DNA of 64,000 nucleotides from assembly GCA_017744415.1 (NCBI GenBank), contig JAGIBJ010000139.1:15023-79022 (forward strand), given 5' to 3'. Position 1 is the stretch's first letter, and every line of letters starts with the position of its first letter. Shown here piece by piece: positions 5,537-58,657 of this stretch. The notes below the pieces were generated by a model. It worked only from the letters and a program-made list of their open reading frames with translations, was not told the DNA's origin and searched no databases. The DNA is from Solirubrobacteraceae bacterium. Lineage in GTDB: Bacteria; Actinomycetota; Thermoleophilia; Solirubrobacterales; Solirubrobacteraceae. Position numbers and translations under genes: made by a program.

Positions 5537-6043
5537 TCACTCGCGCGCGGCGAGCTGCTTCCAGAACCGCAGGAACTCCCGCTCCTGACCGATTCCGAGC
5601 TCGAGCGCGAGGCGCTGACCCGGCTGAAGGGCGTCGAGCTGCTCGAGCTCGAGGTACTGCGCCAGCTGCGCCTCGTGCTGGGCGACCTGCTCGGCGGCGA
5701 GTGCGGCGGGATCGCCGCCGAAGAAGAGCTTGAGGGTGGCGAGGCTGCGGATCTCGACCGGGTCGGGTGCGGGGGCCGCCCGCCACTCGGAGAGCGCCGC
5801 CTTGCCCTCCGGCGTGATCGAGAGCAGGCGCCGCCGGCGGCCCGTCGCCTCGCGCTCCTCGCTGAGGAGGCCGGCCTCGACGAGGCGATCGCACTGCGCG
5901 TAGATCTGCGTGTGCGGCAGCGCCCAGAACTTCGCCACCGAGATCTCGGCGAGGTTCTTGAGGTCGTACGGCGTGGCCGGCTCGAACTGCTCGACGAGCC
6001 CGAGCACGAGGTAGCCCGGCGTCGTCAGCTTGATCGGCGTCAT
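5537..6043 (-). CDS. PadR family transcriptional regulator
   Basis: Winged-HTH PadR-like sequence (PGYLVLGLVEQFEPATPYDLKNL...QIYAQCDRLVEAGLL). The ATG at 6043 was chosen by frame arithmetic. The longer track ORF is R/S/P-rich junk upstream. Confidence 0.85.
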   Translation of the reverse strand: MTPIKLTTPGYLVLGLVEQFEPATPYDLKNLAEISVAKFWALPHTQIYAQCDRLVEAGLLSEEREATGRRRRLLSITPEGKAALSEWRAAPAPDPVEIRSLATLKLFFGGDPAALAAEQVAQHEAQLAQYLELEQLDALQPGQRLALELGIGQEREFLRFWKQLAARE

Positions 6044-6116: not shown

Positions 6117-7571
6117 ATGAGCACGACCACCCGTCCGGGAACACCGGCCGCTGCGCCCGCCGACCGCGCACGCCAGCGTCTGCGTGAGCTCGCCTTCACC
6201 TCCGCCGAGGAGATGCCCGAGGGCGCCGAGCTGCCGGTCGTCGGCGAGCTGCCCGCCTGGCTGCGCGGGCAGCTCCTGCGCAACGGACCCGGCCGCTGGG
6301 ACTTCGGCGGCACGGCGGTGCACCACTGGTTCGACGGCATGAGCCTGCTCCACAGCTTCGAGGTCGACGCCGGCCGGGTGACGTACCGCAACCGGTTCGT
6401 GGAGAGCAAGGCCTACACGGCCTTCCGCGACACCGGCAAGCTCAAGTACTCCGAGTTCGCCAGCGATCCGTGCCGCACGCGCTTTCAGCGGATCCAATCG
6501 ATGTTCCAGCCGCAGGTGACCGACAACCCGGCGATCAACGCGTTCAAGTTCGGCGAGCACTACATGGCGCTGAGCGAGACGCCCATGGCCTACGAATTCG
6601 ATCCGTCGACCCTCGAGACGCTCGGCGTGCTCTACGAGAACCCCGACATGTTCGCCACGGCGCACCCGCACGAGAGCCCTGAGGGTCACATGCTCAATCT
6701 CGCCGGCAAGTTCGGGCCGCGGTCCACTCAGACGTTCTTCTCGATGGACCCAGCCACGCTCGAGGCCAAGCGGATCGGCGGCGTGCGGCGCCAGCGGCCG
6801 ACCTACCAGCACTCATTCGGGATGACCGACCGCTGGCTGATCCTCACGGAGTTCCCGTTCAGCGTGAACCCCGTCGACATCCTCCGCACCGGCCGGCCGT
6901 TCATCGAGAACTTCAAGTGGCAGCCCGAGGCGGGCACGCGCATCGTGCTCATCGACCGCCGCACCGGCGAGCGCGGAGGGGAGTGGGAAGCCGAACCCGG
7001 CTTCTGCTTCCACCACGTGAACGCGTGGGAGGAGGGCGACGACGTGGTCCTCGACCTCTGCCGGTTCGACGACCCGTCGATCGTCGAGAACCTTGCCCTC
7101 GCCCAGCTGCGCGCGGGCGCCGACTACCCCGAGGACGGTAACGCCTACCTGCACCGCTACCGCCTGCGACCGGGGGCCCCGCGCGCTCAGGAGACTCGCC
7201 TCAGCGACGCACCCATCGAGCTGCCGCGCATCAACTACCGCCGTCACAACGGGCGCGCCTATCGCTACGTGTACGGCGTTGGCAGTGGCGCCGACGTCCC
7301 GTTCGACCGCCTCGTGAAGATCGATGCGATGTGGGGTGCCGTGCGCGAGTGGCGCGAGCCCGACGCGCTCGTCGGCGAGCCGGTGTTCGTCGCCACGCCG
7401 GGCGGCGCGGCCGAGGACGACGGCGTGCTGCTCTCGCTCGTGCTCGACGGCCGAGCCGAGCGCTCGATGTTGCTCGTGCTCGATGCCGCCGACCTCTCCG
7501 AGCTCGCCCGCGCGACCATCAGTCGGGCGGTGCCGCCTGGCTTCCACGGAAACTTCGTCCGCGCGAAGTAG
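6117..7571 (+). CDS. Carotenoid/apocarotenoid cleavage dioxygenase (RPE65/CCD family)
   Basis: CCD-like sequence across the full length (NGPGRWDFGG...HWFDGMSLLHSF, FHHVNAWEEGDD, PPGFHGNF). Confidence 0.9.
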   Translation: MSTTTRPGTPAAAPADRARQRLRELAFTSAEEMPEGAELPVVGELPAWLRGQLLRNGPGRWDFGGTAVHHWFDGMSLLHSFEVDAGRVTYRNRFVESKAYTAFRDTGKLKYSEFASDPCRTRFQRIQSMFQPQVTDNPAINAFKFGEHYMALSETPMAYEFDPSTLETLGVLYENPDMFATAHPHESPEGHMLNLAGKFGPRSTQTFFSMDPATLEAKRIGGVRRQRPTYQHSFGMTDRWLILTEFPFSVNPVDILRTGRPFIENFKWQPEAGTRIVLIDRRTGERGGEWEAEPGFCFHHVNAWEEGDDVVLDLCRFDDPSIVENLALAQLRAGADYPEDGNAYLHRYRLRPGAPRAQETRLSDAPIELPRINYRRHNGRAYRYVYGVGSGADVPFDRLVKIDAMWGAVREWREPDALVGEPVFVATPGGAAEDDGVLLSLVLDGRAERSMLLVLDAADLSELARATISRAVPPGFHGNFVRAK

Positions 7572-8412: not shown

Positions 8413-8480
8413 GCCCAGCCGCGCCCATCCGGTGGGCGCCCGAGCCGTCTTCTTCGGGTGCCCGCCCCTCTGAGCGGGCA

Positions 8481-8509
8481 GCCCGGCTCCGCGCGCTGCG
8501 GAGCCGGGC
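8481..8509. terminator. GC-rich hairpin (12-bp stem) between convergent genes
   Basis: GCCCGGCTCCGC-gcgct-GCGGAGCCGGGC. Confidence 0.5.
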
Positions 8510-8539
8510 GCGCCGTCCCTCGGAAGTCGCAGGCTGAGG

Positions 8540-16984: not shown

Positions 16985-18640
16985 GTGGCGGGCCGGCCCC
17001 ATCCGGTGCGGGCGCTCAGCGCGTTCGCCGAGCGGATCCAACACCGCACGCTGCGCACGCGCCTCACCGGCGTGCTGCTCGCGCTGGCGGCGGTGGGCTT
17101 GGTGCTGCTCGCCGCCATCACCTGGGGATCGCAACGGCAGTTCCTCCAGAACCAGGTCGACGATCGCGCGCGCTCGGCGGTGCAGTTCGTCGCCGCCCAG
17201 GTGGTGCTGAAGACGCGCTACGAGGCGCTGAACGGGACCTCGAGCAGCTCGGGGACGAGCGGCGGGGCGGCCGGGCCGACCTCCGGTGCGACCGACGAGT
17301 TCGGCCCGGACAGTGACGACGGCTTCGGGCCGCCGCCGGGTGTCGGCAACCGGAAGGATCGCGGCGACCTGCCACCAGGCACCTACGGTGTGCTCCGCAA
17401 CGCGGCCGGCAAGCAGCTGGGCGTGGCCTACGCGCAGCGCACGCTCGGCGGTGAGTCTCTGCCGGCGCCGAATCTCCCGACGAAGATCGCGTACGACGAG
17501 CCGATCACGGTCGACGCCGTGTCCGGCAGTACGAAGTACCGGGTGGTCGCGTCGCTCGTGCGGTTCCCGAACCAGTCGACCTCGTCGTTCGTCTCGGTGG
17601 TCGCGATCCCGCTCGACAGCAACAGCGACCAGCTCCGCAACCTCGTGCTCGTCGACGGGGTGGTGATCCTGCTGATCCTCGCCGCGCTCGGGTTCGGTGC
17701 CACGCGCCTCGTGGGCGCCGAGCTGGCGCCGCTCGAGCACATCGCCGCCGACGCCGACGAGATCGCTGGCGGGCGTCTGGATCGCCGCGTGCCGGCGGCC
17801 GAGGAGGGCACCGAGGTGGGGCGGCTCTCGGTCGCGCTCAACGCGATGCTCGAACGGATCGAGGAAGCGTTCGCCGAGCGGCAGCGCTCGGAGGACAAGC
17901 TGCGACAGTTCCTCTCGGATGCCTCGCACGAGCTGCGCACGCCGCTCGCGTCGATCCGCGGCTACGCCGAGCTGCAGCGCACCGGGATGCTCAGCTCGGA
18001 CGACGAGCGCAACCAGGCCGTGGCCCGCATCGAGGAGCAGGCGGCGCGCATGGGCACGCTCGTCGAGGATCTCCTGGCGCTCGCCCGCCTCGATGAGGAA
18101 CGCGCGCCGAAGACCGAGCTCGTGGAGCTCGCCGTCCTCGCCCGCGACGCCGTCTCCGATGCCGTCGCCCTCGATCCCGGGCGTGAGGTGAACCTCCGCG
18201 TCGACGGCGATCCCCTCGTCCTCGGCGACGAAGCCCGCCTTCGCCAGGTGTTCACCAACCTCCTCGGCAACGCCGTCGCCCACACACCGCCCGGGTCACC
18301 GATCCACGTGGCCGTGGAGCCGCGCGACGATACGCGTGCGGCCGGCCCGGGCGGGCGCAGCGACGCGCCGGTGGCCGGCGGTGGCTGGATCGCCGTGCAC
18401 GTCGACGACGCCGGTGCCGGCGTTCCCGCCGACCGCCGCGAAGCGATCTTCGAGCGCTTCCACCGCGAGGCCGGCGGTACTGCCCGCACTCGCGGCCCGG
18501 CGGGCGCCGGCCTCGGCCTCGCTGTGGTGCGCGGCATCGTCCAGGCCCACGACGGCACGGTCGTCGTCACCGACTCCCCGCTCGGCGGCGCCCGCTTCAC
18601 GGTCACGCTGCCCCTCGCCGACACCGGCGACGACGACTAG
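16985..18640 (+). CDS. Sensor histidine kinase (TM-HAMP-HisKA-HATPase)
   Basis: H-box (FLSDASHELRTPLASIRGYAEL), N-box (FTNLLGNAVAHTP) and G-box (GLGLAVVRGIV). Confidence 0.9.
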   Translation: MAGRPHPVRALSAFAERIQHRTLRTRLTGVLLALAAVGLVLLAAITWGSQRQFLQNQVDDRARSAVQFVAAQVVLKTRYEALNGTSSSSGTSGGAAGPTSGATDEFGPDSDDGFGPPPGVGNRKDRGDLPPGTYGVLRNAAGKQLGVAYAQRTLGGESLPAPNLPTKIAYDEPITVDAVSGSTKYRVVASLVRFPNQSTSSFVSVVAIPLDSNSDQLRNLVLVDGVVILLILAALGFGATRLVGAELAPLEHIAADADEIAGGRLDRRVPAAEEGTEVGRLSVALNAMLERIEEAFAERQRSEDKLRQFLSDASHELRTPLASIRGYAELQRTGMLSSDDERNQAVARIEEQAARMGTLVEDLLALARLDEERAPKTELVELAVLARDAVSDAVALDPGREVNLRVDGDPLVLGDEARLRQVFTNLLGNAVAHTPPGSPIHVAVEPRDDTRAAGPGGRSDAPVAGGGWIAVHVDDAGAGVPADRREAIFERFHREAGGTARTRGPAGAGLGLAVVRGIVQAHDGTVVVTDSPLGGARFTVTLPLADTGDDD

Positions 18641-18653
18641 CCCGCGCCGCGAC

Positions 18654-18687
18654 ACGCCAGCGGCCGCCCGACGCCAGCGGCCGCCCG
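18654..18687. repeat. Tandem duplication, 2 x 17 bp (ACGCCAGCGGCCGCCCG)
   Basis: Perfect tandem copies that directly abut hairpin copy A. Confidence 0.85.
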
Positions 18688-18740
18688 CGCCGAACAGACT
18701 TCCTCTGTAGCTCTGACTACAGAGGAAGTCTGTTCGGCGC
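18687..18740. repeat. 54-nt perfect palindrome, copy A (24-bp stem, loop CTCTGA)
   Basis: GCGCCGAACAGACTTCCTCTGTAG-ctctga-CTACAGAGGAAGTCTGTTCGGCGC. It is visibly AT-richer than the surrounding DNA. Confidence 0.95.
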
Positions 18741-18782
18741 GAGGGGGGCGAATTTTGGTGGGCTGCGGCCTCTGAATAGGTA

Positions 18783-19865
18783 GTGAATGCCTTGATCAGA
18801 GATCGACTCAAACGACAACGCGGTGTCGTCGCCGACTGGCAGCTCACCCTGGAAGTGAGCGCGGGAAGCATCCGCCACGTAAAGCCCGACTGGCAGCGGA
18901 TGTACGACGGCGTGCACATCAGCGGACACGCCGCGCCGACCGACTGGCAACGGCTGTACGGGGCCACGGTGACCGCCCCCGATTCGGTGCTCGACGCCTG
19001 GGCATCCGCCTGGTTCTACGGCCTCGTCGACCGCTTGGACGGAGCCGTCGACATCGTCCGTCCCGGGTCGGCCGGAGTGCGTGAATTGCCCTCGGTCTAC
19101 GTTCCCCTGGATCCACAGGCCGCCGGGGATGTCGGGAGCCCCGACTCTGATCTTGCGACGACCGCAGCCGGTAGTCAGGCACCAGGCCGCGGCCCGACCG
19201 ACGACACGCCGCCCGCGACGGGGACGGCGATCGGTCGACCGGATGACGGGGACGATGCCTCCTCGTCGACGGACGACAAGCCGCTGGTCGATCCCCGCTT
19301 CGCGCTCAACGTGCGCCGCTCGGAATGCCTCGACGAGGTCGATCTGCGAACCAATGACGGGATCGCGATGCTCAGTCCGGCTCGAACCGTCGTGGATCTC
19401 CTCGCGTTGCTCTACTCGTCGAACCGTCGCGCACGGCTGGTGCGAGACGCACTACGTCTCCGCGTCGTGACACCCGCGGAGCTCCACGAGATCGCCCGCC
19501 GGGGCCGCGGCCGACGCGGCGTGGGCCGCTTGCGGCCGCTGCTGGACGTCTACGCGCGGCTCCCGATGGACGAGGCGAAGAGCGACGCTGAAGCGCTTGC
19601 CGTGGCGTTGCTGGTGGCCGCAGGCTTCCCAGAACCGCGGCTCAACGTGCTCGTCGAAGGCGAGGAGGGTGATCTCGTCTTCCCCGCCGAGCGCCACATC
19701 GTCGAGCTCGACAGTCACGGGTTTCATCCGTTCCCGGGCGAGGACGAGCGGAAGCAAGCCATCTGGATCAATGCAGGGTGGACGGTCGATCGCGCCCCAA
19801 CCGACTCCGTCTACACGGATCCCGCGGTGCTCTACCGGGCCGCGACTCCACCACGCCTCCGCTAG
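18783..19865 (+). CDS. DUF559/Vsr-like endonuclease-fold protein with an AbiEi-like N-terminal region
   Basis: The C-terminus resembles DUF559 (GDLVFPAERHIVELDSHGFH...ERKQAIWINAGWTV). The middle is a long acidic, disordered insert. The 5' end is about 57% GC by my count of the first 60 nt. Confidence 0.65.
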   Translation: MNALIRDRLKRQRGVVADWQLTLEVSAGSIRHVKPDWQRMYDGVHISGHAAPTDWQRLYGATVTAPDSVLDAWASAWFYGLVDRLDGAVDIVRPGSAGVRELPSVYVPLDPQAAGDVGSPDSDLATTAAGSQAPGRGPTDDTPPATGTAIGRPDDGDDASSSTDDKPLVDPRFALNVRRSECLDEVDLRTNDGIAMLSPARTVVDLLALLYSSNRRARLVRDALRLRVVTPAELHEIARRGRGRRGVGRLRPLLDVYARLPMDEAKSDAEALAVALLVAAGFPEPRLNVLVEGEEGDLVFPAERHIVELDSHGFHPFPGEDERKQAIWINAGWTVDRAPTDSVYTDPAVLYRAATPPRLR

Positions 19866-19880
19866 CTGGCCCCCTCCTCC

Positions 19881-19934
19881 GCGCCGAACAGACTTCCTCT
19901 GCAGTCAGAGCTACAGAGGAAGTCTGTTCGGCGC
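19881..19934. repeat. 54-nt palindrome, copy B (reverse complement of copy A, 1 substitution)
   Basis: GCGCCGAACAGACTTCCTCTGcAG-tcagag-CTACAGAGGAAGTCTGTTCGGCGC. The loop is the reverse complement of the copy A loop. Confidence 0.95.
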
Positions 19935-19966
19935 TGGTGTGGGCACGCGCGCTCGGCCGGCTTGAG

Positions 19967-22615
19967 CTAGCTCGAGGCGGCGCGCAGGGCGGTGTCCTTG
20001 CCCTGGCAGTCGTAGAGGCCGTCGACGCTTGAGACGGCCGTACAGGTATTGGTGACGGCGTTCATCACGGTGTTGGAGCCCGTGCGGCTGTCCCGAAGAC
20101 CGCCGCTGCTCGTGACCACCCAGCGGATGTTGCCGCTGGCGACCCGGTCGGCAAACCAGCTCACGCTCACCTCCGACTCGCGGCCCGAGAAGCCGCCGAT
20201 GCCGGCAAGGTCGGCGTCCGAGCTGAGGATCGCCGTCGCGGCGCCCATCTGCCCGGAGACGACGACCGTGCCGCCGCCGTTGGCCTTGGCGTAGGCGAGG
20301 GCCGAGTTCACCGACGACTGGTCGCCGCCGAACATCCCGCCGGCGCCCATGCCGCCACCGCCGCGGAAGCTGCGCCGGGTGCCGGCAGCCGACGAGCTGC
20401 CGCCCTGCGACGAGCCGCTGGTCGAGCTGCCGCTCTGCGATGCGCCGCCGGCCGCGCCGGGCCTGCCCGGGAATCCGCTTTGGATGCCGGACGACGAAGT
20501 GCCGCCCGGCATGCCCGGAAACCCGCTCGAGCCGCTCGACGCGGAGCCCGGCAGCGCCGGCGGCTGTCCGCCGCCGAACCCGCCGCGGAACCCGTTGCCG
20601 CGGCCGAAGCCGCCGCGGCCACCGCCTGGTCCACCGCCCATGCCGCCACCCTGGCCGGCGGGGCCGCCGGTAGGGAAGGTGCTGCCGACGTTGTGGTTCA
20701 GGGTTTGCGCCGACCAGACGGCCGGGGCGACGAGCAGGAGCGCGGTGGCCGCGGTGACGGCGGCGACCCGGATGCGCCGGCTCCGCACCGCGACGAACGC
20801 GACGGCCGCGACGATCGTGCCCGCGTACAGGAAGGGGGTGAGCCAGCCGAGCTGGGTCGCGTTGCCGAGCACGACGCCCTCGGTGATTGCACCGGCGACG
20901 AGCATCGCGCCGCCGAGCACGCCGAGCACGAGTCCTTCACGCGAGCGCACGCCGCTCGCGGCGGCCGCGGGCACATCGAGCCCGGTTGCCCGAACCTGTG
21001 TCGCGGCACCCGCACGGTACGCGGCCGACTGATGCTGCGCCGACGCCTGAGCCTCCGCGGCGCCCGCCACCATCGGGTCGCCGTCGCGGTCGGCCCAGAG
21101 TTCGGCGGGCACGTGGCCCGCTGGACCCGCGAACGCCGCCGCCGGCACCGCGCGGGCGCCATCAGTGTCGCTGGCCGCGGCGGCGCGAGCGCCCCCCGCC
21201 GCTGCAGCGCTGGTCCGCGCCGCTCCGTCCGAGTCACCGCGAGCGACAGCACCAGCAGCCGAACGGCCGGCCGCAGCGCCGGCCGCTGCAGCGCTGCCGA
21301 CCGGCGCCACGCCGCTGTCCACGGCCGCGAGCCGCGACGCGGCATCCGCATCCGCCTCGCGGCGCGCCAGCGTCAGCATGGTGCCCACGCCGCCGCCAAC
21401 GAGCGCGGCCGTGAATGGTGCCAGCGCCGACACGTAGTAGGGATGGAAGATGCCGGAGGCGTAGGAGAACGCCACGGCGGTGATCGCGAAGGCACCCCCG
21501 ATGGCGATGAGCCATCCCGTGCGCGCATCGCTGCGGCGCAGCCGCGAGGCGGCGAGGATCAGCACGCTGGCGCCGATCGCGGCACCGAGGAGCCAACCGC
21601 CCTGGCTGCCGAGCGACGAGTTCAGCAGTCGCAGCGGGCCGGCGTCGCCGCCGAACACGCCGCCGCCACCGCCGCCGCCGGGCCCACCGCCCATGCCGCC
21701 GCCCGGTCCACCGCTCTGCCCGAGCAGCCGGCCGAGGCCGTTGTAACCGAGGATCAGGCTCCAGATCGAGTTGTCGCTCGTGCCCGAGATCCACGGGCGA
21801 TCCGCGGCAGGCGTGAGCCAGACCGCGATCGGCCAGGCGAGCCCGAAGACCAGCGCCGACGCCCCGAACGCGAACAGCTGCCGCACGGCGCGCAGCAGCG
21901 ACGCGCCTGCGGGACGCACCCACAGCCACGCGGCCACCATCGCCGGCACCACGAGCAGCGCCGCCGCCATCTTCGCCTCGAAGCCGAGCCCGACGGCGAC
22001 GCCCGCGAGCACGAGCCAGCGCGTGCGGCCGTCCTCGAGGCCACGCACGAGCGCCCACACCGCGAGCGTGATGCAGAGGACGAGCGCGGCATCCGGGTTG
22101 TTGTGGCGGAAGATCGCCACGGCCGTCGGCGTGAGCGCGAGCACGAGGCCGGCCGCGAAACCGCCGGCCCGCCCGAACACGCGCCGCGTCATCCCGTAAG
22201 TGAGCTCGACGGCCGCGATGCCCATCAGCGCCTGCGGTGCGAGGTAGGCCCATGAGCTGAAGCCGAAGAGCCGCACCGAGGCGGCCTGGACCCAGAGCGC
22301 GAGCGGCGGTTTGTCGACGGTCATCAGCCCGGCCGGGTCGAACGTGCCCCAGAGGAACGCGCTCCACGACTCGCTCATCGAACGCACGGCTGCGGAGTAG
22401 TACGTGTTGGCCTCGCCGTTGACGGAGAGGTTCCAGAGGTTCAGGAAGGCCGCGAGCGCGAGGAGCACGAGCAGCTCAGGACGGCGGACGAGCCCGGCGC
22501 CGAAGGCGCGCACGCGCGACCCGGAGGCCGCGTGGTCGCGCTCGGCCTGAGTGCCGGGCGCATCACCCGCGCGGGACGCGGGCTGTCGGGGGAAGGAAGA
22601 GGAAGCTGAAGACAT
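19967..22615 (-). CDS. GT39/ArnT-PMT-like membrane glycosyltransferase with large low-complexity inserts
   Basis: The N-terminus is GT-C/GT39-like (YYSAAVRSMSESWSAFLWGTFDPAGLMTVDKPPLALW) and many TM segments follow. There are Gly-rich and Ala-rich tracts. Confidence 0.8.
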   Translation of the reverse strand: MSSASSSFPRQPASRAGDAPGTQAERDHAASGSRVRAFGAGLVRRPELLVLLALAAFLNLWNLSVNGEANTYYSAAVRSMSESWSAFLWGTFDPAGLMTVDKPPLALWVQAASVRLFGFSSWAYLAPQALMGIAAVELTYGMTRRVFGRAGGFAAGLVLALTPTAVAIFRHNNPDAALVLCITLAVWALVRGLEDGRTRWLVLAGVAVGLGFEAKMAAALLVVPAMVAAWLWVRPAGASLLRAVRQLFAFGASALVFGLAWPIAVWLTPAADRPWISGTSDNSIWSLILGYNGLGRLLGQSGGPGGGMGGGPGGGGGGGVFGGDAGPLRLLNSSLGSQGGWLLGAAIGASVLILAASRLRRSDARTGWLIAIGGAFAITAVAFSYASGIFHPYYVSALAPFTAALVGGGVGTMLTLARREADADAASRLAAVDSGVAPVGSAAAAGAAAGRSAAGAVARGDSDGAARTSAAAAGGARAAAASDTDGARAVPAAAFAGPAGHVPAELWADRDGDPMVAGAAEAQASAQHQSAAYRAGAATQVRATGLDVPAAAASGVRSREGLVLGVLGGAMLVAGAITEGVVLGNATQLGWLTPFLYAGTIVAAVAFVAVRSRRIRVAAVTAATALLLVAPAVWSAQTLNHNVGSTFPTGGPAGQGGGMGGGPGGGRGGFGRGNGFRGGFGGGQPPALPGSASSGSSGFPGMPGGTSSSGIQSGFPGRPGAAGGASQSGSSTSGSSQGGSSSAAGTRRSFRGGGGMGAGGMFGGDQSSVNSALAYAKANGGGTVVVSGQMGAATAILSSDADLAGIGGFSGRESEVSVSWFADRVASGNIRWVVTSSGGLRDSRTGSNTVMNAVTNTCTAVSSVDGLYDCQGKDTALRAASS

Positions 22616-34604: not shown

Positions 34605-34674
34605 CTCCGGCGCTCGTGTATGACGCGTGGAGGGTACGCAACGCGCACTCCGCGCGTCATACACGAGCCCGGAG
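34605..34674. terminator. Long imperfect palindrome (~27-bp stem, 15-nt loop) filling the convergent intergenic region
   Basis: CTCCGGCGCTCGTGTATGACGCGTGGAG-loop-CTCCGCGCGTCATACACGAGCCCGGAG. The symmetry extends outward to the two stop codons (cCTAG ... CTAGg). Confidence 0.6.
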
Positions 34675-46145: not shown

Positions 46146-46428
46146 AGCGCGGCAGCCTACGCGGCCGGGCTTCGGAGCGCTGCGCGCGGATGGGGGAGGG
46201 CGGCGGTTACGGGATGCGGCGAACGGGCATGGTCTGCGTCGGAGGGCTGAGGGGCTGATGGATGCGAGCCGCCGGCGGAGATCCAGCGGCTCGCGATGAT
46301 GGGATTCCCGTGCACCTCGCGCGGCCCTCCTGCCCGCATCGCGAACTCGGCATCCGTACGAGTGTTCGATCGCGAGTGCGACCGATCGCTCAAGCCGCGC
46401 GAACGCCAGCCGATCAATCCGCACCGCC

Positions 46429-46487
46429 GGCCCGTTCTGGCATGCGTTTCTCCGGACACTGTGGAGCAACGCATGCCAGAACGGGCC
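46429..46487. repeat. 59-nt near-perfect palindrome (25-bp stem with 1 mismatch, 9-nt loop)
   Basis: GGCCCGTTCTGGCATGCGTTTCTCC-ggacactgt-GGAGCAACGCATGCCAGAACGGGCC. It lies in a ~400-bp non-coding region, about 60 nt upstream of the plsC-like start. Confidence 0.9.
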
Positions 46488-46545
46488 GGGCGGGGTGTGC
46501 GTGAGGCGGCGCTCCCGCCGTGGTCCCCAGCGGTACGCTCCTGCC

Positions 46546-47920: not shown

Positions 47921-47995
47921 CGCGTGAGCGGGACATAACTGTGGCTACAACCACAGTTATGTCCCGCTCACGTCGACGGCTGCGCTGGTAGCGCG
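47908..47995. repeat. 50-nt perfect palindrome flanked by 17-bp direct repeats (MITE-like footprint)
   Basis: The direct repeat GCTGCGCTGGTAGCGCG occurs at 47908-47924 and 47979-47995. The hairpin CGTGAGCGGGACATAACTGTGG-ctacaa-CCACAGTTATGTCCCGCTCACG lies at 47923-47972. Confidence 0.9.
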
Positions 47996-53326: not shown

Positions 53327-53467
53327 GCGCGCTCGAGACCCCCCCGAGAGCGGGGCAGGTCGATGCGCTTCGTTGTAACTCGGATTCGGGTGCGAGGGCA
53401 TCGGGGGAACCCCCACGCGGATCCCCACAGTGCGCGCCGGGGGTGACGAGGGTGCCGCCGCGAAACG

Positions 53468-53511
53468 ACGACGGGCGCCGCCGCTCCCGTAGGAGCGACG
53501 GCGCCCGTCGT
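53468..53511 (-). terminator. 20-bp-stem hairpin downstream of the SDR gene
   Basis: ACGACGGGCGCCGCCGCTCC-cgta-GGAGCGACGGCGCCCGTCGT, with one mismatch. Confidence 0.6.
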
Positions 53512-53578
53512 GCTTCGGCACCGAGTGCCGAGCGGGCCGCGCTCCGCCCGACGGCGGCGCGCGACCGAAGCGGTGGCC

Positions 53579-58620: not shown

Positions 58621-58657
58621 GTGGACAGATCCCGCAGCCACCGCGGGATCTGTCCAC
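58621..58657. terminator. 15-bp perfect-stem hairpin between convergent genes
   Basis: GTGGACAGATCCCGC-agccacc-GCGGGATCTGTCCAC. Confidence 0.6.

Follow-up and report, generated by a model that had tools for sequence, protein, structure and literature searches.

Why would a single bacterial gene stand between two nearly identical long palindromes? The question is raised by a locus in a 64,000-nucleotide stretch of Solirubrobacteraceae DNA (contig JAGIBJ010000139.1, positions 15,023 to 79,022), referred to here as the window, in which a 54-nt palindrome lies on either side of an open reading frame (ORF) for a nuclease-like protein. The original prediction, made from the letters of this DNA, offered two answers: a mobile or recombination-delimited cassette carried between hairpins resembling repetitive extragenic palindromic (REP) sequences or miniature inverted-repeat transposable elements (MITEs), or hairpins that are recognised by the encoded protein. 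The second answer is the one that we now favour, at about even confidence: the block from 18687 to 19934 would be an accessory cassette complete in itself, its palindromes being bound by the protein that it encodes, a reading that draws on the AbiEi-type fold predicted for that protein and on the resemblance of the palindromes to AbiEi operators in their geometry.

Palindrome A (18687-18740) has two 24-bp arms around a 6-nt asymmetric centre, GCGCCGAACAGACTTCCTCTGTAG-CTCTGA-CTACAGAGGAAGTCTGTTCGGCGC, with a GAAC-N36-GTTC core at 18692-18735, and palindrome B (19881-19934), with a core of the same form at 19886-19929, has the centre TCAGAG (…TCTGCAG-TCAGAG-CTACAGA…); neither is assigned to a strand. 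Sequence reading and reverse-complement comparison agree with the original description of two 54-nt palindromes in inverse orientation, A being a single base apart from the reverse complement of B, and with the flanks included the inverted repeat lengthens to 65 nt (18684-18748 against 19873-19937, at 92%). A 16-mer from the arms occurs four times in the window, in both arms of both copies, against 0.31 occurrences expected by chance. Folding returns a 24-bp stem for each copy, as had been claimed, and the stems contain no extrahelical bases: the fold energy of A is -64.6 kcal/mol (z -11.8 against shuffled sequences), and that of B, which has one C·A mismatch in its stem, is -59.3 kcal/mol (z -9.4). 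The ORF between them (18783-19865, plus strand, 360 amino acids) begins 42 nt after A and ends 15 nt before B, and these gaps too are as first given. Guanine-plus-cytosine (GC) content is 0.55-0.56 at the 5' end of the gene (18700-18849) against 0.77-0.80 immediately upstream, a drop that had likewise been noticed. Over the element as a whole it is 67.3% against 72.1% for the window, within the lowest 0.7% of same-size windows, and GC at third codon positions (GC3) is 0.795 in the cassette gene against 0.89-0.93 in neighbouring genes.

The encoded protein had been labelled DUF559/AbiEi. Neither Pfam nor NCBIfam returns a match to the window protein even at E<=10, and its database record reads hypothetical protein, so the label cannot be read directly from those libraries and rests instead on homologues, the family profile, the predicted structure and PADLOC, all of which uphold it. 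The PADLOC AbiEi models match the window protein at E 2e-6 and its relatives at 2e-25 to 8e-28. An AlphaFold (AF2) model (predicted local distance difference test, pLDDT, 85.4; predicted template-modelling score, pTM, 0.76) was compared with known structures by Foldseek, and its first two domains, about 260 residues, match the AbiEi antitoxin 6y8q_A (E 1e-3, probability 1.00, template-modelling score, TM, 0.65 on the target). The C-terminal domain matches 3r3p, the Vsr-like catalytic domain of I-Bth0305I (TM 0.68, root-mean-square deviation 2.9 Å), and 1vsr more weakly, and a search with the family profile recovers the DUF559 crystal structure 3hrl (E 2.2e-6). Among the 22 members of the family alignment A1, Pfam recognises DUF559 in 12, REase_MTES_1575 in nine, AbiEi_4 in eight and AbiEi_1 in seven. 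The protein is thus predicted to be a complete AbiEi-type DNA-binding module (N-terminal winged helix plus AbiEi C-terminal domain) fused to a C-terminal Vsr/DUF559 ("EDxHD"-like) nuclease domain, which looks catalytically competent because D297, E308, D310, H315 and D321 are invariant across the family alignment. The AbiEi-like module is split, between the winged helix and the rest, by a disordered low-complexity insertion (19134-19256, plus strand; residues about 118-158, pLDDT below 50) rich in Pro, Asp, Thr, Gly and Ala; in one homologue (P0004) an insertion of unrelated sequence sits at this point, and the others have none. The AbiEii/DUF1814 partner gene is absent, a single ORF lying between the palindromes in the window and likewise in five homologous loci (L019, L020, L023, L026 and L032). 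The wider family is very large, a profile of the subfamily finding 6,468 clusters (50% identity) at E<=1e-30 and about 26,000 at E<=1e-10, and AbiEi_4-DUF559 fusions are among the commonest "hypothetical" genes of Actinobacteria.

The bracket recurs around homologues of this gene in other soil actinobacteria. Eight loci were viewed in genomic context, the relatives' genomes being covered within ±10 kb. Seven further loci have palindromes beside homologues whose protein identity runs from 59% down to about 41%, and in each of them that keeps both flanks (L018, L019, L020/L021, L023/L024, L026 and L032) the gene lies between near-identical long palindromes. L018 is a Logan contig that begins inside its upstream palindrome, L019 a JGI contig with a protein 56% identical, and L020/L021 come from GCA_036704275.1. 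L023/L024 lie beside HPF and SecA genes on a contig that stops in the downstream palindrome, L026 is near an acetyl-CoA carboxylase carboxyltransferase gene, and L032 (protein about 41% identical) is beside ETF/Fe-S genes; in L025 the contig stops inside the gene and the upstream palindrome is present. Homologues are placed in at least four other, unrelated genomic contexts with palindromes at both ends. A distant member, L033, has no palindrome.

Across these loci the arm interiors and centres vary, whereas the base is constant, GC[CT]GAACGT…ACGTTC[AG]GC (GAACAG in the window), and so is the geometry. The span from GAAC to GTTC is exactly 44 nt in all 19 copies, which align over 54 columns with no gaps, and the non-palindromic centre ranges from 2 to 12 nt with the total span unchanged. 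A constant total length with a variable "loop" argues for binding of the duplex by a dimer rather than for selection of a hairpin with a fixed stem. The two copies of one locus are more alike than copies from different loci, and arm symmetry is kept despite sequence turnover: in 16 of 21 pairs both partners have changed, and the share of paired cells is 85.5%, compared with 29-42% when the register is slid; none of 500 shuffles attains the observed value. Counts of G·T pairs on the sense and the other strand are 19 and 13, and this lack of a clear bias argues against a sense-RNA structure, which we set aside. The copies are inverted in the window, L023 and L032 and direct in L019, L020 and L026; L020 and L026 have tandem two-palindrome modules on each side of the gene.

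The palindromes also reach into the genes themselves. In five loci (L019, L020, L023, L026 and L032) the downstream palindrome contains the stop codon, and in L032 the upstream palindrome spans both a conserved leader motif and the start codon. This leader motif, GGGGGGCGAATTT in the window (18743-18755, plus strand), lies about 30-40 nt upstream of the start codon and has the consensus GGGGGGCGA(A/G)(T/C); its core GGGGCGA is invariant in nine of nine aligned loci, the palindrome-less L033 included, and in L032 the motif itself forms the 5' base of the upstream palindrome. Overlap with a palindrome leaves signatures in the proteins, an N-terminal …DVR… from GACGTTCGG and a C-terminal PNV or AER from CCGAACGTC or GCCGAACGT. 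Such signatures are found in 21 of 57 close family representatives against one of 23 distant ones, which suggests that the association spans many clusters of the close subfamily, rather than the whole DUF559 superfamily.

With one exception, the palindromes occur only next to these genes. A covariance model of the family (R1) scores A at 62-63 bits and B at 61-64 bits, and the next best match in the window is a generic hairpin at 25.9 bits. Neither by pattern nor by R1 are family palindromes found in the rest of the window (about 62 kb) or in about 65 kb of gene-less syntenic DNA (L027-L029), and over the loci R1 finds copies only beside the genes, the sole exception being a solo palindrome in L020 that lies between GT39 and TetR, 2.5 kb from the gene. 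The gene is detected by tblastn once in the window and not at all in the gene-less loci, and tblastn of the window protein and of P0014 finds no match among PLSDB plasmids. The exact arm 18-mer has four matches in GTDB representative genomes, among which the source metagenome-assembled genome (MAG) is not included, and 12 in JGI metagenome contigs; all are single-strand matches in unrelated taxa and are put down to chance. A scan of viral contigs with the family base motif gave one match (L031), within a coding region and with no palindromic interior, and it was likewise rejected as chance. Other hairpins in the window and the loci have unique sequences, and only those adjacent to AbiEi-nuclease genes are duplicated, with the GC[CT]GAACGT base.

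From the directly observed anatomy, fold assignment, family-wide association, fixed geometry, presence or absence, and orientation changes, we infer protein binding, autoregulation, insulation and gene conversion as the steps by which such a cassette may work. Each 54-bp palindrome would act, as double-stranded DNA, as a pair of inverted half-sites of about 24 bp at fixed spacing, AbiEi antitoxins binding such operators as two monomers. Acting with the conserved leader half-site GGGGGGCGAA, the upstream copy would mediate negative autoregulation of a potentially harmful nuclease; in L032, whose upstream palindrome spans leader motif and start codon, the palindrome has the position expected of an autoregulatory operator. 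The downstream copy may bind the same protein and may also serve as a bidirectional hairpin terminator that insulates the cassette from its neighbours, and the two ends are possibly looped together via the protein. Because both ends would have to fit one protein and could recombine with each other, they would stay near-identical within a genome and diverge between genomes. Recombination or breakage at the palindromes would then let the cassette be lost, gained or inverted as a block. Protein binding would account for the exclusive association with the gene, the locus-specific arms, the identical ends and the absence of a clear G·T strand bias.

Several points weigh against this interpretation. 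The window palindrome ends 42 nt before the start codon, and a consensus scan recognised no sigma-70-type promoter near it that an operator could overlap. A copy at the 3' end is not a known feature of AbiEi operators, and the roles proposed for it are conjecture. A winged helix is unlikely to read a whole 24-bp arm, and since symmetry is near-perfect along the full arm, the formation of a hairpin or cruciform, or templating, may matter as well. In addition, insertion-deletion borders that coincide with the palindromes, and the lack of a solo palindrome left in L028, fit an element with defined termini better than they fit random recombination.

These borders were seen at the chromosomal site of the window cassette and its closest relatives. 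The site is defined on the left by a HAMP/HisKA/HATPase histidine kinase (HK) gene (16985-18640, plus strand), whose best named relative is from Patulibacter, and on the right by a convergent GT39/PMT_2 mannosyltransferase gene (19967-22615, minus strand); neither belongs to the element. With a response regulator (RR) gene and GT2 added, the order in the window is RR-HK(+), cassette(+), GT39(-) GT2(-). L018 has the same gene-to-GT39 arrangement, and in L019 and L020 the cassette sits between the same neighbours in the opposite orientation, with a TetR-FMO pair added. The original prediction had called for a comparison of synteny, and relatives with neither gene nor palindromes in the gap between the HK and GT39 genes were indeed found: L027, a Patulibacter minatonensis MAG that is the closest relative by its kinase (76%), and L028, whose kinase is 83% identical to those of L019 and L020 and which retains FMO-TetR with no cassette and no palindrome left. 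Conservation of gene and hairpins does not extend to every relative, and the hairpins do not make up a terminator family found generally at gene ends. In the alignment of L028 with L019/L020 the missing block is exactly palindrome(s)-gene-palindrome(s). Over the empty sites, the ends of the indel fall at or within about 10-25 nt of the outer edges of the palindromes; between the window and L027 homology picks up again about 24 nt outside A, a distance that includes the 17-nt second unit of a tandem duplication, and about 7-10 nt outside B. The hairpin-gene-hairpin block is a discrete unit that has been gained, lost and flipped as a block. This much of the cassette first proposed stands, given the gene-less L027 and L028, the other contexts and the inversion; the comparison with REP or MITE sequences finds no support, as neither the 64-kb window nor about 65 kb of gene-less syntenic DNA yielded dispersed copies.

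The tandem duplication just mentioned had been reported in the original prediction and is confirmed at 18654-18687: two perfect 17-bp units of ACGCCAGCGGCCGCCCG (18654-18670 and 18671-18687, with no strand assigned) lie on the outer side of A and overlap it by 1 base. The repeat is absent from the other side of the element, so that both units lie on one side and a target-site duplication is ruled out. Short tandem duplications occur repeatedly beside or between family palindromes, as a 17-mer twice, a 7-mer 7.7 times, a 13-mer twice, a 23-mer 2.9 times and as GCCGGCTCGGC repeats; those at other loci are in L026 (1299-1358, 1412-1437, 2537-2562 and 2630-2695) and L020 (about 5885-5905 and 6985-7003). 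They may reflect replication slippage or repair at palindromes.

The history of the cassette at this site can be read from two trees. In the kinase tree, cassette presence and absence are found in both clades, and the cassette protein tree has the same two clades (window/L018 against L019/L020), each with a fixed orientation; P0008 and P0009 are 79% identical and their kinases 83%. Because the trees are congruent, residence of the cassette looks long and mostly vertical, with clean losses (or gains) and at least one inversion. The gap between HK and GT39 looks like a local hotspot for accessory genes, since its cargo varies: FMO-TetR in L019, L020 and L028, and MerR plus a hypothetical gene in L029. 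In L027 (11343-11596) the gap holds about 185 nt of unrelated sequence with an open frame, …CENELAWTLVGQGARG…IEIRAWLMTRLKAAAPQALVVA*, which may be the remnant of another gene. Near the divergent TetR gene and upstream of the FMO-like gene there is a small conserved palindrome, AAAAGTGATG…CATCACTTTT (L019 5815-5845; L028 11690-11718), probably a TetR operator that is unrelated to the family palindromes. The GT39/PMT_2 protein of the window has 882 amino acids against 723-801 in relatives, with Ala/Gly/Ser-rich low-complexity stretches in its middle and C-terminal parts.

An assembly artefact, or an arbitrary orientation within the MAG, was considered and rejected: the longest stretch that is shared exactly measures only 32 nt, L018 shows the same arrangement in an unrelated sample, and the architecture recurs in JGI, NCBI and Logan assemblies. 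Contigs with these genes do tend to begin or break off within a palindrome or within the gene itself (L001, L022, the 3' ends of L023/L024, the 5' end of L018 and the 3' end of L025). One Logan contig, L001, is 1244 bp long, corresponds to window positions 18689-19932 and terminates in both palindromes, consistent with a short-k-mer assembly graph broken at the shared inverted stretch. The bracket probably fragments short-read assemblies and is probably under-represented in MAGs.

The alternative that survives best is an active mobile element, with the palindromes as its termini and as substrates of its own nuclease; we consider it possible, though rather doubtful. A dimer would bind each end, the Vsr-like domains would nick or cut, and host repair or recombination would copy, excise or invert the unit, in a homing-like lifestyle or one like that of REP sequences and their REP-associated tyrosine transposases (RAYTs), with a PD-(D/E)xK/Vsr-type enzyme in place of the HUH transposase. 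In its widest form, which we put forward just as tentatively, the cassettes would make up a class of selfish elements, bounded by palindromes, that has so far gone unrecognised, the AbiEi domain targeting the nuclease to the element's own terminal palindromes; assembled from other components, they would be functional analogues of REP/RAYT systems or of free-standing homing endonuclease genes. Nicking or cutting may then lead to excision or inversion, to gene conversion of the ends and, now and then, to spread, and give rise to solo and tandem palindromes, and the class could reach part of the very large actinobacterial family of 6,468 clusters. Presence and absence at one syntenic site in both kinase clades, with borders at the palindromes and none left in L028, are in keeping with this, as are the homologues in at least four unrelated contexts, the opposite gene orientation in two lineages at the same site, the solo palindrome in L020, the tandem doublets in L020 and L026, the low GC3 and the invariant catalytic residues. 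The nearest nuclease fold, moreover, is that of a bona fide homing endonuclease, a homodimer with a footprint of about 60 bp on a pseudopalindromic site (PMC3239194). However, the congruence of cassette and kinase trees speaks for long vertical residence and not for recent jumps, no second copy of gene or palindrome exists in the 64 kb beyond the bracket, and neither a target-site duplication nor a conserved target sequence was seen flanking the elements in the loci compared. Intact sites at both ends would expose the resident gene to self-cleavage, unlike in classical homing, and a nuclease alone cannot carry out strand transfer. The binding-site reading and the mobile-element reading are not mutually exclusive, and both can hold.

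It is improbable that the hairpins are only terminators or RNA stability elements, identical through local duplication and gene conversion and recognised by no protein. The window does contain other long hairpins, with 17-30-bp stems, unique sequences and no U-tract, apparently at gene ends (1699-1746, 8475-8515, 34610-34670, 46427-46489, 47923-47972, 53464-53515 and 58621-58657). One pair of these (46427-46489 and 47923-47972) might pass for a second bracket; the two are unrelated in sequence, with an ordinary acyltransferase gene and a second, unassigned ORF between them, and were classed as ordinary gene-end hairpins. Four of them (34610-34670, 46427-46489, 47923-47972 and 53464-53515) show that long U-tract-less hairpins do stand at other gene ends of this genome, A starts 46 nt past the stop codon of the histidine kinase, B has convergent genes on its two sides, and both strands of A and of B fold strongly, all of which would suit terminators. 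Yet it is only beside AbiEi-nuclease genes that hairpins are duplicated with a shared base, and a constant 44-nt span around a variable loop is not a terminator property. Further points against a pure terminator are the start codon within the upstream copy of L032, the stop codon within the downstream copy of five loci, the recurrence of the motif as a leader half-site and the lack of a clear sense-strand G·T bias. A consensus scan of 18400-20200 found no terminator-like site of the kind with a hairpin and U-tract, and Rfam gave only sub-threshold look-alikes of microRNA precursors, which are generic hairpin noise. The hairpins may still act as U-tract-less actinobacterial terminators.

Less probable still is a programmed inversion switch, in which the 1.1-kb segment would flip within a population and alter expression of the nuclease relative to its neighbours. 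The inverted copies in the window, L023 and L032 and the difference in gene orientation between lineages at the same site would allow for it, and in a bacterial-domain survey "DUF559 domain-containing protein" was enriched 14-fold among predicted targets of programmed inversion (odds ratio 14.3), a point on which the survey says no more (PMC9881135). Against this, the unit and its immediate neighbours contain no invertase or recombinase, the conserved leader flips with the gene so that promoter and ORF stay coupled, the copies are direct in L019, L020 and L026, and orientation is fixed per clade. A bracket whose inverted repeats overlap gene ends could itself be the source of the DUF559 signal among inversion targets.

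That the palindromes form a generic dispersed REP-like family and lie beside the gene by accident is hardly credible: one solo copy in L020 would agree with it, against palindromes at gene ends in 7 or 8 independent loci, their absence from the remaining window and the gene-less syntenic DNA, and an exact arm that is missing from GTDB representatives and JGI metagenomes save for single-strand chance matches. A protelomerase (telomere-resolution) site was rejected in view of the constant length, the one cargo gene, the non-palindromic centre and the absence of a protelomerase from the unit and its immediate neighbours.

Returning to the cassette with its own binding sites, the palindromes are a tightly linked candidate DNA partner of fixed geometry for this protein family, present at both ends of the gene. 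Such a bracket would explain the assembly breaks at these genes, the place of DUF559 among predicted inversion targets and the patchy distribution of the gene. Should the nuclease act on its own palindromes, a mobile or self-maintaining DNA element would here be built in a new way; should the protein do no more than bind them, the cassette would be AbiE toxin-antitoxin logic in a new single-chain form, with operators at the two ends of the gene.

Full-text literature searches returned no published description of a palindrome-bracketed DUF559/AbiEi gene, and several known systems resemble it in part. The closest in the arrangement of the sites are the AbiEi operators, which consist of two 23-bp inverted repeats 3 bp apart in S. 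agalactiae and 13 bp apart for Rv2827c of M. tuberculosis, where two inverted-repeat pairs stand in tandem (PMC7319586). The arms here are 24 bp with a 6-bp spacer, the doublets of L020 and L026 recall the tandem pairs of Rv2827c, and the fold of the first 260 or so residues is that of an AbiEi antitoxin (6y8q; PADLOC AbiEi). Unlike the AbiE type IV toxin-antitoxin system, the cassette has no AbiEii/DUF1814 nucleotidyltransferase gene and has instead a Vsr-like nuclease fused in cis; the site is repeated at the gene's 3' end, where it often covers the stop codon, and the unit is an indel cassette. For the nuclease half, the nearest parallel is the EDxHD homing endonuclease I-Bth0305I, a multidomain homodimer with a footprint of about 60 bp centred on a pseudopalindrome (PMC3239194). 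It shares with the cassette protein the catalytic fold and the invariant acidic and histidine residues, and its footprint is comparable to the 54-65-bp palindromes. Presence or absence at a fixed chromosomal site is likewise a feature of homing endonuclease genes, but the cassette gene is found in neither an intron nor an intein, its product binds DNA through a predicted AbiEi-like part, intact palindromes stand on both sides of the gene where homing would leave a target site disrupted by the insertion, and empty sites carry no recognisable palindrome.

The phage GIY-YIG endonuclease I-TevI represses its own gene by binding an operator similar to its homing site. Here a selfish nuclease does double duty as repressor of its own promoter via a site like its cleavage target, which makes it a precedent, though it belongs to another nuclease family and to a phage system, and has one operator rather than a bracket. 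RAYTs are single-copy genes for DNA enzymes flanked by cognate palindromic repeats that are species-specific and seemingly co-evolve with them, and they show long vertical residence with occasional loss. The single-copy gene, the flanking palindromes that differ between loci and seem to co-evolve with it, and the long vertical residence with occasional loss are shared by the cassette; the enzyme is not of the IS200/IS605-type HUH (Y1) tyrosine transposase kind, the palindromes measure about 54 bp around a 44-nt core of fixed length against REPs of about 20-40 nt, no dispersed copies were seen in 64 kb, and half of the loci have their flanking copies in direct orientation. Integron attC sites have a base RYYYAAC…GTTRRRY, span 57-141 bp with extrahelical bases, bound diverse cargo and are served by an integron integrase. 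An ORF bounded by imperfect palindromes with an …AAC/GTT… base (GCCGAAC…GTTCGGC here) is common to both, and an attC cassette was nevertheless rejected given the constant length, the lack of extrahelical bases in the window copies, the one cargo family and the lack of arrays; a screen limited to the bracketed unit and its immediate neighbours found no integrase. The cassette borrows the protein-operator logic of AbiEi and the nuclease of the Vsr/EDxHD enzymes, and is itself neither AbiE, nor REP/RAYT, nor an integron cassette, nor a classical homing gene.

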